Source of the DNA: Actinomycetota bacterium
GTDB taxonomy: Bacteria; Actinomycetota; JAHEXW01
Length of the DNA: 64,000 bases
Direction: 5' to 3'
Assembly (NCBI GenBank): GCA_025355855.1
Contig: JANXYU010000032.1
Span: forward strand, 28,832 to 92,831
Positions 44,707 to 50,005 of the stretch are shown in pieces. Numbering within the stretch: the stretch's first letter is position 1; each line of letters begins with the position of its first letter. The notes below the pieces were generated by a model that saw only the letters and a program-made list of their open reading frames with translations, was not told the origin of the DNA and ran no database searches. The translations under genes were made by a program, and so were the position numbers.

Positions 44707-45165
44707 GTGACGAACACCAAGAATCATGCTCTCCTTCCCGACCAGAAGGTGTTAGCGGTTACCATCGGTTTGCAGGAAAGTATCTCCGGAGTGCATACTC
44801 CCCAGGAAGCTGCCCGTCTGTTGGAAGTCATTTTGACGCCGCAAGAAATACGCACAATCGCGATACGTCTTCGGATCATGAAAATGCTGCGCGCCGGCCA
44901 TAATTATGTGTCTATCCAGCAAGAACTGTGCGTTTCACCAGGAACAATTGCTCGAGTACAACTGAACCTAGAACACGCTCAAGACGCGCCAAAGCGAGGC
45001 AGCAAGGCGCGCGCGGAGAAGGCGGCTTATCAAAACAAACAAGGCCCCGATCATTCCAAAAAACCTGCTTACAGTACGCGTAGCAAGTACGAAGAATGGC
45101 AGTGGCCGGCGGAAGCGGTCACTTCAATCGTAAGGGCAATATCAGAAACGAGAAAAAGAAGATAG
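44707..45165 (+). CDS. TrpR-family (YerC/YecD-like) DNA-binding protein; candidate HisR-type repressor
   Basis: GTG start. LLEVILTPQEIRTIAIRLRIMKMLRAGHNYVSIQQELCVSPGTIARVQ matches the TrpR/YerC helix-turn-helix core. The C-terminal tail is basic. Confidence 0.6.
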   Translation: MTNTKNHALLPDQKVLAVTIGLQESISGVHTPQEAARLLEVILTPQEIRTIAIRLRIMKMLRAGHNYVSIQQELCVSPGTIARVQLNLEHAQDAPKRGSKARAEKAAYQNKQGPDHSKKPAYSTRSKYEEWQWPAEAVTSIVRAISETRKRR

Positions 45166-46277: not shown

Positions 46278-47264
46278 TTACTTGCCCTGCAGGCGCTTGA
46301 CTTGCGTCTTGATGTTTTTGGCGCTCTTCTTGACGCCGGTTTGCACGGTTTTCTGCATCTTACGCGCGACGTCTGCGCCGGGAACGATGTCTCCAACCGA
46401 CAAGGTCTCTTGCTGACGCCCGGCCGCGCCCATCTGGAACATATCCAGCAGAGCGGCTATCTCTCCTTTGATGTCCTTACGTTCTATCACCATGTCCACC
46501 ATACCGTGCTCCAACATGAACTCGGCGGTCTGGAACCCAGCTGGCAGTTTCTCCTTAAGTGTGTCTTCGATCACACGAGCGCCGGTAAAGCCGATTAAGG
46601 CGCCCGGTTCGGCGATGATAATATCGGCCAACGCGGGAAAACTGGCCGTGACGCCGCCGGTCGTCGGATGCGTCATGATCGAGATATAGGGCACATGTTT
46701 GTCGGCCAGTTTAGCCAGAGCGGCGCTTGTCTTTGCCATTTGGGCCAGGGAGAACATGCCTTCCTGCATCCTGGCTCCGCCGGACGCCGCGACGATTATC
46801 AGAGGAGCGTGCTTCTTGGCGGCATATTCGATCGCTCGCGTAATCTTTTCGCCGACCACGCTGCCCATGGAGCCTCCAATGAAGCGAAAGTCCATGACCG
46901 CGATAACGACAGTGCGGGCGTTCACCTTGCCATACCCGGTCATGACTGCTTCTTTCAGCCCTGTATTGGCCATCGAAGCTTCCAGGCTTTCCTTATAAGC
47001 TTTGTTGCCGACAAAAGCGAGAGGATCGGCGCTCGTCATATCGGCGTCAAGCTCCCGGAATGTGCCCATGTCGAGAAGCGTATCCAAACGCTCGTGCGCG
47101 CTCAACGGATAGTGGAAGGAGCAGCCGGGGCAGACCTTATAGCCGGCGAAGAATTCTTTTTGGAAGATGACCTCGCCGCACGCCGCGCATTTTGACCAAA
47201 TGCCTTCGGGGATGCCCTTTTTGGTATCAATACTCATTGGTAAATTATCTTCCATCGCCCTCAA
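46278..47264 (-). CDS. accD: acetyl-CoA carboxylase carboxyltransferase subunit beta
   Basis: N-terminal Zn ribbon CAACGEV...CPGC plus the carboxyltransferase domain. Confidence 0.9.
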   Translation of the reverse strand: MRAMEDNLPMSIDTKKGIPEGIWSKCAACGEVIFQKEFFAGYKVCPGCSFHYPLSAHERLDTLLDMGTFRELDADMTSADPLAFVGNKAYKESLEASMANTGLKEAVMTGYGKVNARTVVIAVMDFRFIGGSMGSVVGEKITRAIEYAAKKHAPLIIVAASGGARMQEGMFSLAQMAKTSAALAKLADKHVPYISIMTHPTTGGVTASFPALADIIIAEPGALIGFTGARVIEDTLKEKLPAGFQTAEFMLEHGMVDMVIERKDIKGEIAALLDMFQMGAAGRQQETLSVGDIVPGADVARKMQKTVQTGVKKSAKNIKTQVKRLQGK

Positions 47265-47350
47265 AATGGCAACAACCCCCGCTTCCGCGCTTTCGGCGTT
47301 CGGAAGCAGGGGTGTAATGCCATTTATTGGAACCCGGGCAAACCCGGTTA

Positions 47351-48709
47351 TCAGCCGACCTTAGGCAGCGACGCGATCGCGCGCGCCTCATCAGCCTCGT
47401 TGTACTCGTCGTCTTCCAGCTTGCCGTTTAGATAGGCATCGTACGCTGCCAGATCGAAGTGGCCATGACCTGTTAAGAGGAAGCAGATATTCTTTTCTTC
47501 TCCGTTTTCCTTGCACCGCATCGCCTCATCGATTGCGGCCTTGATGGCGTGGGCCGACTCGGGCGCCGGCAAGATGCTTTCCGTGTGGATAAACTGCATT
47601 GCCGCCTCAAACACGCCCATCTGCTTAAAGGCCTCGGCCTCGATCACCTTGTCGTGGTACAGGCTGGATATGATCGGGCTGTCGCCATGGTAGCGCAAAC
47701 CGCCGGCGTGGATCGGCGACGGTATAAAGTCGTGCCCGAGTGTGTACATCATGACCACCGGCGCCATCTTGGCTTCGTCGCCGTAGTCGTACGCATATAG
47801 GCCTTTAGTCAGTGTCGGGCAAGAAGCCGGCTCGACCGCGACCAGGCGTACGTTACGCTTGCCGGATAAATTGTCTCGAACATACGGCATGGCCACTCCG
47901 CCGAAGCTTGAACCGCCGCCGACGCAGCCATAAATAACGTCCGGTTCGGTGTCGATCAAAGCGAACTGTTTTTGCAGCTCTTCGCCGATGATCGTCTGAT
48001 GCAGAATCACGTGATTAAGTACACTGCCCAAGCTGTAGTGGGTACCGGGATGAGTCACCGTGTCCTCAACCGCCTCGCTGATCGCCAGGCCTAACGTGCC
48101 GGGATGGTTCGGATAATCCGCCATCGCCGCCCGACCGGCATTGGTTAGTTCACTGGGGCTGGCCACAACTTTAGCGCCATAGGCCTCCATCAACATGTGA
48201 CGGTAAGGCTTTTGGTTATAGCTGGCCTTGACCATGTAGACCATGCACTCCAAACCCATCAACTGGCAAGCCATCGATAGGGCCGAACCCCACTGGCCGG
48301 CTCCTGTTTCCGTCGCCAGACGCGTCGTACCTTCGAGCTTGTTATAGTAAGCCTGGGCGATCGCCGTGTTCGTTTTATGCGAACCGGACGGGCTCCCGCC
48401 TTCATACTTGTAGAAGATCTTAGCCGGTGTGCCCAAAGCCTTTTCCAGCCGGCGCGCTCGGAAGAGAGGACTCGGCCGGTATAACTTGTAGACGTCCAAA
48501 ACCTCTTCCGGGATGTCGATGTAACGTTCGTCGCTCATTTCCTGCTGAATCAAAGCCATCGGAAATAAAGGTGCGAAGTCCTCCGGTCCAGCTGGCTTGA
48601 GTGTCTGCGGGCTGAGCGGCGGCGGCAAAGGCGTCGGCATATCCGGCAGGATGTTGTACCATTTCGTCGGCATATCGCGTTCTTCTAGAATTATTTTTGT
48701 TCTGTCCAT
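47351..48709 (-). CDS. trpB: tryptophan synthase beta chain, TrpB2 type
   Basis: Long TrpB2-type sequence with a PLP-lysine region. The start was reassigned to the ATG at 48709 (MDRTKIILEE...), which has GAAGGAG 6 nt upstream. The track ORF extends 25 codons further upstream into the leader. Confidence 0.9.
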   Translation of the reverse strand: MDRTKIILEERDMPTKWYNILPDMPTPLPPPLSPQTLKPAGPEDFAPLFPMALIQQEMSDERYIDIPEEVLDVYKLYRPSPLFRARRLEKALGTPAKIFYKYEGGSPSGSHKTNTAIAQAYYNKLEGTTRLATETGAGQWGSALSMACQLMGLECMVYMVKASYNQKPYRHMLMEAYGAKVVASPSELTNAGRAAMADYPNHPGTLGLAISEAVEDTVTHPGTHYSLGSVLNHVILHQTIIGEELQKQFALIDTEPDVIYGCVGGGSSFGGVAMPYVRDNLSGKRNVRLVAVEPASCPTLTKGLYAYDYGDEAKMAPVVMMYTLGHDFIPSPIHAGGLRYHGDSPIISSLYHDKVIEAEAFKQMGVFEAAMQFIHTESILPAPESAHAIKAAIDEAMRCKENGEEKNICFLLTGHGHFDLAAYDAYLNGKLEDDEYNEADEARAIASLPKVG

Positions 48710-49120
48710 GTGAATCACTCCTTCAATAGTGGTTGGTTGTTGTGTCTGACTGTTTTGTCTATTGGTTTTGCCATCGTGAATCATGTGTCGTGTAAATGTG
48801 TTTCAACTTGTACCTCCAAAAACAAAAATACCCCGCGTCCCATATTGGGACGAGAGGTATGCTCTCGCGGTGCCACCCAACTTCGTCTTCGGTATCACTA
48901 CCGGAAACCTTTCGACCTCTTCAGGTTGCCCTGGAAGGTCTAGCCCTTGGTAACGGAGGCTGCCGGCAAAGCCTACTGGCTCGTCTCAAGCTTTCGGTTT
49001 GCGTCTCCGGGGCCCATTCGATCGGCGATTTGGTCATTTCCGCTTCCACCATCCGGAACTCGCTATCGCCCTCTACCGACCTACTCTTCCCCATCACAGA
49101 CTTTCGTAGCGCTTATTCAA
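48710..49120 (-). ncRNA. candidate T-box riboswitch leader of trpB
   Basis: The minus-strand RNA contains AAGUUGGGUGGCACCGCGAG, matching the T-box consensus AGGGUGGNACCGCG, at 48863-48882. It is followed by a hairpin (CGUCCCA-AUA-UGGGACG, flanked by GC-rich pairs) and UAUUUUUGUUUUU at 48809-48860. Upstream are GA/K-turn-like UGAUGG and AGAGUAG motifs and UGG triplets in a candidate specifier region. The bulge UGGC implies a tRNA with discriminator G, consistent with Trp. Confidence 0.45.
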
Positions 49121-49434
49121 TTGTCCTTTTATTTTACGAGTCTGGTTAGGCAAAGTCAAGCCACGAAAAGGGCTTGTAATCAGCGGCTGTAGGTATACTA
49201 TTAAGGTATAGACAATGTCCGGGAGCAGATACAAGGCGACCCGAGAATCCGCCCGAACGCGGCGACATGATTTCGCTGCGTTGCGGAGACGGGGGGGCGG
49301 GCGCCAGGCAGAAGCCGTCAGATTTGAAGGATCCGGCCGCGTACGGCTAAAGGCACGGAACCTTGAGAGAAAACCCTTTACGGGCTGTGCTGATGGCGGT
49401 GCGAAGGCTCCCGGATTATTTATTTGGAGGTTAG

Positions 49435-49797
49435 TTGGCGTATCTTCTCTGGTTCATAACTGCTGCATGGGCAACCGTCATCTTCTACTTCTCAACACTG
49501 ACAGGCTCAAACGTTCCCTCTGTGTTGCCCGACTATATCCCGCATTTTATGGAATACGCTATTCTGGCAGGACTTCTTTGGTTCACCGTCCGGGCTACCA
49601 AAAAGCAATTGCCCCCAAGCCTGACCGGCCTGTGGGCAATTTGCTTAACTACTATTTACGCGGCCTCAGACGAGTGGCACCAATCATTCGTTCCCGGTCG
49701 CAATATGGATGTCAAGGACTGGGCTGTCGATACGTTGGCGGCAATCGCCGTCGCTGCGGTAATCGGTTATGTTATAGCTCGACGGTCACGCAAGTGA
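49435..49797 (+). CDS. VanZ family protein
   Basis: 120 aa with 4 TM helices and the VanZ-like conserved D/E and W positions (ASDEWHQSFVPGR). TTG start with GGAGG upstream. Confidence 0.65.
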   Translation: MAYLLWFITAAWATVIFYFSTLTGSNVPSVLPDYIPHFMEYAILAGLLWFTVRATKKQLPPSLTGLWAICLTTIYAASDEWHQSFVPGRNMDVKDWAVDTLAAIAVAAVIGYVIARRSRK

Positions 49798-50005
49798 GCG
49801 TACGCGACACGCCGTCGATCTTTTGGATCTTGGCGACAATCAGGTCACCGATGGCGCTGAAATTACTTGCTTCGATGTAGGCAATGGCGTCATAGGGACC
49901 CGTTACGGCGTTGACCATCTTGACACCCTGAATCTTCTCGATCTCTTTGACGATCTCCGTCGCTTTACCGGGTTCCGCGCTGATTAGAACAAAGGCTGTT
50001 ACCAC
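49772..50005 (-). CDS. stand-alone Lrp/AsnC ligand-binding (RAM) domain protein
   Basis: 77 aa resembling an AsnC-type C-terminal domain, with no HTH. It sits immediately downstream of hisI at the operon end. Confidence 0.5.
   Translation of the reverse strand: MVTAFVLISAEPGKATEIVKEIEKIQGVKMVNAVTGPYDAIAYIEASNFSAIGDLIVAKIQKIDGVSRTLTCVTVEL

Follow-up and report, generated by a model that had tools for sequence, protein, structure and literature searches.

A tryptophan-class T-box riboswitch predicted to control trpB2 in an uncultured lineage labelled Actinomycetota

The 64,000-nucleotide stretch analysed here (the window) comes from contig JANXYU010000032.1, positions 28,832 to 92,831, of the Actinomycetota bacterium assembly GCA_025355855.1. 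On its minus strand it carries trpB2 (47351..48709), which encodes a TrpB-like enzyme dependent on pyridoxal phosphate, and a long leader that holds, in order of transcription, a promoter-like site, a match to the T-box leader RNA family (RF00230), an intrinsic terminator, a candidate leader open reading frame (ORF) and the Shine-Dalgarno (SD) sequence of the gene; all of these features lie on the minus strand. We conclude that this leader is very probably a genuine T-box riboswitch of the tryptophan class, acting on trpB2 by transcription attenuation. This conclusion rests directly on the membership of the RNA family, on the position and conservation of the specifier, on two covarying and mutually exclusive structures, and on the identity and start of the downstream gene.

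The product of the gene, 452 aa long, matches the TrpB2 profile NF009057 with 714 bits (cut-off 366), profile positions 2-438 lying on residues 2-439, and TIGR01415 with 634 bits (cut-off 519); it has a PALP domain, and the canonical TrpB model TIGR00263 gives 141 bits against a cut-off of 392. An earlier reading of this DNA, made from the sequence only, had held that the 477-aa ORF called at this place, starting at ATG 48784, was a false in-frame extension of 25 codons into the leader. This is borne out: the TrpB2 profile match starts at the second residue of the 452-aa form, the public protein collection contains exactly the 452-aa protein, homologues measure 450-456 aa, and the upstream ATG frame meets a stop before trpB2 in the 99.6%-identical relative L089. 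The SD sequence GAAGGAG (48718..48724) stands 8 nt before ATG 48709, not 6 nt as had been given, and the region AAGGAGTGATT..ATGGA that spans it and the start is kept in relatives.

The search of the minus-strand leader with RF00230 that the sequence-only reading had proposed returns a full-length match above the gathering score of 93, with 96.4 bits (E 6.3e-20) over 49106..48843 and model positions 1-219/219 aligned. An Rfam scan gave this T-box as the sole cis-regulatory family match within the window, and a permissive rescan of 48600..49450 gave no further credible match. About 25 nt upstream, a consensus scan identified a promoter-like site (49131..49159) composed of a -35 box TTGACT (49159..49154), a 17-nt spacer and a -10 box TAAAAT (49136..49131), with 10/12 consensus matches; TTGAC of the -35 box is invariant across the aligned leaders of the window, L085 and L086 (L numbers designate the loci compared), and the site is predicted to act as a promoter. 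The leader had been presented as worth confirming in a GC-rich lineage where T-boxes are comparatively rare. This description is loose: the G+C content of the window is a moderate ~55% (range 52-58%), and this T-box is present in every relative examined.

Stem I (49003..49100) was delimited by the Rfam alignment and by covariation of the flanking helices. It includes the GA or K-turn motif (UGAUG from 49096 and GGAG from 49008), a specifier loop with AAGAGUA on its 5' side (49088..49082) and GAAUGGG on its 3' side (49019..49013), an AG bulge AGCGA (from 49064) and a distal loop GAUGGUGGAAG (49053..49043). The GA motif and the AGAGUAG element that had been called Stem-I-like were thus found and aligned to the family, and one of the UGG triplets noted in the candidate specifier region occupies the true specifier position (49016..49014), where it is followed by a purine, G49013, and by the closing helix CCCC. 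This places UGG (Trp) at positions 2-4 upstream of the closing helix, in agreement with the placement rule of TBDB. We assessed conservation on an alignment set made of the window leader, 13 other trpB2 leaders and 2 trpE leaders, with RF00230 above gathering score. The UGG triplet (alignment columns T91, G92 and G93) is invariant in 15/15 aligned leaders, and compensatory changes affect 13 of the 19 predicted pairs of Stem I, and each of the three helices bordering the K-turn and the specifier loop has some; a Stem I carrying a specifier loop can be aligned, with covarying helices on both sides. AGCGA and GAUGGUGGAAG align to the consensus elements AGAGA and UUGGUGaaA, and the AG-GA and GGUG columns are invariant across the 15 leaders, so the distal platform is present at the level of motifs. 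The middle of the leader contains Stem II, with AGUA, and the Stem IIA/B region CGGCAGCCUCCGUUA (48951..49002), for which a downstream AGGGCU may be the pseudoknot partner, and the Stem III hairpin (48885..48909). The amino acid of the specifier agrees with the gene: UGG reads tryptophan upstream of TrpB2, and relatives have trpE operons behind the same T-box.

The 3' part of the leader can adopt either of two structures. The near-perfect T-box sequence reported by the sequence-only reading, AAGUUGGGUGGCACCGCGAG (48883..48864), is present on the minus strand with UGGC at 48875..48872, and the conserved T-box sequence UUGGGUGGCACCGCGAG forms an antiterminator with a UGGN bulge (48844..48881). 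This antiterminator consists of helix A1 (GUUGGG/CCCAAU), a 7-nt bulge UGGCACC (48875..48869) and helix A2 (GCGAGAG/CUCUCGU); it has an energy of -14.3 kcal/mol, and the canonical fold is the minimum-free-energy structure of the segment. The second structure is an intrinsic terminator (48818..48857), whose stem (48857..48831) pairs the arms CCUCUCGUCCCA (48857..48846) and UGGGACGCGGGG (48842..48831) around the loop AUA and is followed by the U-tract UAUUUUUGUUUUU (48830..48818). The GC hairpin and U-run described earlier are therefore all there, and an explicit ViennaRNA fold of the hairpin gives -17.2 kcal/mol. Because antiterminator and terminator overlap by 14 nt (48857..48844), they cannot coexist and must compete. 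Both energies are inside the TBDB ranges for transcriptional T-boxes, and both structures covary: 88% of the alignment cells are paired in the antiterminator and 82% in the terminator, each has 5 pairs with double changes, none of 500 shuffles scored as high in either case, and each exceeds every slid control. A T-run follows the terminator stem in 15/15 leaders. The variable base of the bulge is C (window) or U across the aligned leaders. TBDB gives G as the general discriminator of tRNA-Trp, and C or U as the base at this position in Trp T-boxes, so the C of the window fits the discriminator of tRNA-Trp.

These elements suggest how the leader would work. Transcription probably starts just downstream of TAAAAT, and the nascent Stem I would dock tRNA-Trp, with the anticodon CCA on UGG (49016..49014) and the elbow on the platform formed by the AG bulge and the distal loop. 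An uncharged tRNA would pair through its 3' end GCCA with the bulge UGGC (48875..48872) and stabilise the antiterminator, allowing read-through into trpB2; with a charged tRNA, the more stable terminator would form with its U-tract and transcription would stop ~110 nt before the start codon. TrpB2 is expected to make tryptophan from indole and serine or O-phosphoserine, and with this activity the cell would induce the step from indole to tryptophan when Trp-tRNA is low. TrpB2 enzymes have been linked to indole salvage (Merkl 2007; Hiyama 2014, as cited in PMC11085991), a role that fits induction by uncharged tRNA-Trp.

Some observations weigh against this interpretation. The RF00230 score is a mere 3.4 bits over the gathering threshold, the copy of the same species in L089 scoring 111.3 bits. 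One pair of Stem I in the Rfam alignment, G38-A73 in stem numbering, is non-canonical, and an alternative local pairing of Stem I, GGCGAU/AUCGCC, is possible. The consensus terminator scan of 47000..50000 listed no site. There is no tRNA-Trp gene in the window, so that the match to a CCA anticodon and G73 is drawn from general knowledge; among the scanned loci L001-L087 there is likewise no usable tRNA-Trp gene, the only call (L076, 97 nt) being on a Micromonosporaceae contig that has no T-box-trpB2 leader. Finally, tRNA binding and read-through by the leader are inferred from the sequence.

The same locus in relatives reveals a T-box that is more stable than the genes around it. Synteny is conserved over the his operon, a 77-aa AsnC-like gene, VanZ, the T-box, the trp genes, accD-accA, tRNA-Leu and glnA, and T-boxes scoring 94-128 bits are found at the same place, between AsnC/VanZ and the trp genes, in L085 to L089. 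From the -35 box through the terminator, the window leader can be aligned with those of L085 and L086, which makes the T-box of the window an orthologue of the trp-operon T-box of the relatives. The nearest named relatives of the TrpB2 and TrpE proteins are labelled Actinomycetota, Candidatus Aquicultor, Candidatus Oleimmundimicrobium or Candidatus Subteraquimicrobiales. The HisF protein of the window has an exact match in the metagenome-assembled genome GCA_043725015.1. What follows the T-box differs between loci. In L085 (TrpB2 70% identical to that of the window) the order is T-box, trpB2, accDA, like the window; in L086 (70%) it is T-box, trpEGDC, trpB2, trpFBA; L083 and L084 (~80%) have trpCFBA before trpB2; L087 (85%) has T-box, trpEGDCFBA, 216 nt, trpB2; L088 (90.5%) has T-box, trpB2, trpEGDCFBA; and in L170 and L172 (95%) trpB2 is followed by a second short T-box and trpE. 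The order of the window is repeated in two independent assemblies of the same species, L089 and an ENA contig (99.6%-identical TrpB2), so the arrangement with trpB2 alone is not an assembly artefact. None of trpE, G, D, C, F, B1 and A lies within the window, and no TrpE attributable to the window species was found in the protein collection, none being >71% identical to the TrpE of L088 save that of L170, which is suggestive only. The earlier description of trpB2 as stand-alone therefore stands for this locus and species and fails in close relatives, where trpEGDCFBA adjoins trpB2 under either this T-box or another one.

The trpEGDCFBA block lies on opposite sides of trpB2 in L088 (3716..10173) and L087 (3313..9785), and its proteins are 51-70% identical between the two, versus 68-90% for the flanking proteins, which suggests replacement or transfer of the cassette. 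In the window, the spacer segment CGATGGCAAAACCAATAGACAAAACAGTCA (48776..48747, minus strand) matches the trpA-trpB2 spacer of L087 (9805..9838), and also L084; the local score is 32, where shuffles gave 16.5 +/- 2.4. Such a match hints that the trpB2 spacer derives from an ancestral trpA-trpB2 junction. We rejected a clean deletion of trpEGDCFBA between T-box and trpB2: the spacer match was all that spoke for it, and L170 and L172 (95%) and L088 (90%) have their trp genes after trpB2. The change may have gone in either direction, by loss of the cassette in the window or by gain in relatives. The second T-box of L170 (1230..1532) and L172 (1540..1772) is itself a compact element, located after trpB2 and ahead of trpE-trpG, apparently without Stem II and Stem IIA/B, with a specifier AAA-UGG-G and its own terminator; nothing comparable follows trpB2 in the window.

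To place the association more broadly, we scanned genomes and metagenomes for TrpB2; the matches listed have <=67% identity, and closer relatives came from protein searches and exact look-ups. Among the matches listed, a T-box motif occurs within 450 nt of trpB2 in 31 of the 145 loci with enough upstream sequence, and those of the 31 that have a taxonomic label are all Chloroflexota; no T-box was found at the archaeal, proteobacterial, planctomycete, other actinobacterial or Firmicutes trpB2 loci of the same set. Eleven Chloroflexota trpB2 loci have a T-box above gathering score, all with GAAUGG and with a terminator and U-run. Second T-boxes were seen, all on the minus strand, in the Dehalococcoidia loci L014 (9059..9309), L019 (5966..6228), L020 (9279..9529) and L059 (7669..7922), where they precede MFxPV...EEKILxFW products resembling isoleucyl-tRNA synthetase, in line with the report of three T-boxes (ileS, trpE and trpB-like) in Dehalococcoides.

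The presence of a T-box that adjoins trpEGDCFBA in relatives, in a window that has none of those genes in 64 kb, could be taken to mean that the element is an inactive relic of their loss, trpB2 being constitutive or expressed from another promoter. We consider this very unlikely. None of the conserved T-box elements is damaged, nor is the terminator or the promoter-like site; the T-box-trpB2 unit is kept in L089 (111.3 bits), L085, L171 and L172; the differences between the window and L089 keep or improve pairing; and, although a strong terminator deprived of antitermination would shut trpB2 off, the gene retains an undamaged 452-aa frame, 99.6% identical to that of L089. Even less probable is translational control as in the actinobacterial ileS T-box, where a 3' helix sequesters the SD sequence. 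The label of the lineage lends it some appeal, because the T-boxes described in Actinomycetota are mainly translational Ile ones, but the antiterminator here competes with a hairpin followed by the U-tract UAUUUUUGUUUUU, the SD of trpB2 lies 93 nt beyond that tract and has no part in the switch, and the leader, whose specifier lies in an internal loop of a full-length Stem I, matches the transcriptional model RF00230 from end to end. As for the tRNA that is read, the sequence GAAUGGG offers AUG (Met) and GGG (Gly) in frames overlapping UGG in the window, but a tRNA other than tRNA-Trp is hardly credible, and is the most improbable of these readings. UGG is at the canonical place, 2-4 nt ahead of the closing helix; GGG is not conserved, as the base after UGG is G, A, U or C among orthologues, and neither is AUG, as L087, L088 and L171 have a U in front of UGG (GAUUGG); the regulated genes are always trp genes, and the C of the bulge fits the discriminator G of tRNA-Trp.

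A further proposal extends the T-box interpretation instead of replacing it. Between the terminator and trpB2 lies a candidate leader ORF (48759..48817), with an SD sequence GGAGG (48817..48813) 6 nt before a UUG start at 48806, a peptide MKHIYTTHDSRWQNQ and a stop ending at 48759; its single Trp codon (48773..48771) is in a weak UGG-CAAAA-CCA hairpin. Control of trpB2 might thus have two tiers, the T-box for transcription and, over 48806..48759, a ribosome-mediated reading of Trp-tRNA. In Bacillus subtilis, the rtpA operon has a T-box followed by rtpLP, a leader peptide with Trp codons, and provides an analogue of such control. We hold this second tier as a tentative possibility, with the odds against it. 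The ORF is kept in three same-genus leaders, where it begins with ATG and shows some synonymous changes (L089 MKHIYTTHDTRW, L172 MKGIYATHSSRWQSSYSNY and L171 MNKAKRWQTITG, each followed by a stop), and in each same-genus leader a CCA further downstream pairs with its UGG (-1.1 to -7.8 kcal/mol). The Chloroflexota-type leaders often have a strong form of what is weak in the window: 15 of the 31 T-box-trpB2 leaders among the matches listed have, at the same place, an ORF of 12-19 codons preceded by an SD sequence (L003, L010, L016, L033, L056, L059, L063, L065, L098, L099, L103, L120, L142, L151 and L153; MSTMSWHWPLWGQR and MATIFCRWPLGAI are examples). The last UGG of each of these ORFs lies at the 5' base of a GC hairpin with an energy of -9 to -17 kcal/mol, of the form UGGCCCC...GGGGCCA, which covaries (GGCC, GGCCCC/GGGGCC, GGUCCCC/GGGGACC, GGCGCC) while the peptide varies (WPxG, WGPPG, WRRPAP), and no such ORF occurs in the ileS and trpE T-box leaders examined. 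Several observations on the window and its relatives count the other way. The hairpin of the window has just 3 bp and -1.1 kcal/mol, and the spacer after the terminator folds weakly (-12.3 kcal/mol over 133 nt). L088, a 90% relative, and L085 have short spacers without leader ORF, and L087 and L084 read the common CGATGGC motif in a different frame, the L087 ORF being devoid of a Trp codon. No alternative structure was found that couples the leader ORF to the SD of trpB2, 37 nt further, and chance readily yields short ORFs. Another upstream ORF, at ATG 48774 (MAKPIDKTVRHNNQPLLKE), was rejected as a conserved peptide, for it has no SD sequence and its frame is shifted by a 2-nt indel when compared with L087 and L084. 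The ORF-hairpin of Chloroflexota matches no Rfam family, and no description of it was found in a literature search. To our knowledge, this arrangement, strongly conserved in T-box-trpB2 leaders of Chloroflexota, is undescribed. A bolder picture would have two successive sensors of tRNA-Trp, the T-box and then a mini-ORF with its Trp codon at the 5' base of a hairpin, and, separately, would see in trpB2 the sole trp gene, serving regulated indole salvage in a Trp auxotroph that lost trpEGDCFBA; we regard this combination as doubtful, and rather unlikely to hold as a whole.

Whatever the role of the leader ORF, a tryptophan T-box ahead of this type of gene is already known in kind, because T-boxes on trpE and on a 'trpB-like' gene have been reported in Dehalococcoides (Wels et al. 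2008, PMC2494555). As there, a T-box with a Trp specifier stands directly upstream of a TrpB2-type gene; unlike there, the lineage of the window is labelled Actinomycetota and its T-box is orthologous, by position and sequence, to one that, in relatives, precedes the whole trp operon. Trp is among the commonest T-box families (TBDB). The element of the window shares the UGG specifier, the UGGN bulge and the competition between terminator and antiterminator with the T-boxes of the Firmicutes trp operon and of B. subtilis rtpA-ycbK (anti-TRAP). It differs from the Firmicutes trp T-boxes, of which tandem copies before trpE are reported in some bacilli, in being single, in regulating trpB2 alone and in having a host that is not a Firmicute. 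The T-boxes described in Actinobacteria are chiefly translational Ile ones (TBDB). With the actinobacterial ileS T-box the element shares the phylum label of its nearest relatives and the sensing of the acceptor end by the bulge; the Ile specifier, the truncated Stem I with the specifier in a hairpin loop and the sequestration of the SD sequence are absent from the window.

Downstream of trpB2, a GC-rich hairpin (47276..47312, -26.2 kcal/mol) followed by UUGUUGCCAUUUU is a probable terminator closing the transcription unit, and analogous hairpins occupy the same junction in L087, L083, L084 and L085. It is followed by a promoter-like TTGCCA-17-GATAAT (47272..47244) and by the probable ATG of accD at 47237, on the same strand. 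The -10 element GATAAT ends 6 nt before that ATG, and a (C/G)ATAAT element is kept in L087 and L088; accD is called as 319 aa in L089, and the 328-aa ORF with a TTG start is probably 9 codons too long. We infer a monocistronic trpB2 transcript and a separate, near-leaderless one for accD-accA; the strong hairpin after trpB2 and the separate promoter-like site suggest that accD-accA are outside the control of the T-box. Beyond accDA, ~2.2 kb downstream of trpB2, the plus strand encodes a 152-aa TrpR-related protein of the YerC/YecD family (44707..45165), with a Pfam Trp_repressor match of 53.5 bits and a TIGR02531 match slightly below cut-off; the ENA contig of the same species has a homologue in the corresponding position, and tblastn of L001-L087 gave none. 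On the other side, between the his operon and the promoter of the T-box, a 77-aa stand-alone AsnC/RAM-domain gene (49772..50005, minus strand) and a VanZ-family gene (49435..49797, plus strand) converge and overlap at their 3' ends, a pair kept in L085, L086 and L088. The 221-aa ORF at 49215..49880 (plus strand) has no family match and is probably spurious.

The immediate gain is one of annotation: 48843..49106 is to be described as a Trp T-box, and the start of trpB2 moves to 48709 (452 aa). The expression of trpB2 is predicted to follow the charging of tRNA-Trp. An uncultured lineage labelled Actinomycetota, a phylum whose described T-boxes are mainly translational and specific for Ile, carries a full-length Trp T-box of the terminator type, and the comparison of loci shows a T-box that stays put as the trp biosynthetic genes shift to either side of trpB2 or vanish. 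The Trp-codon ORF and hairpin of Chloroflexota may be a separate regulatory element. If it is true that the species lacks trpEGDCFA, then trpB2 would be an indole-salvage gene induced by tryptophan starvation.

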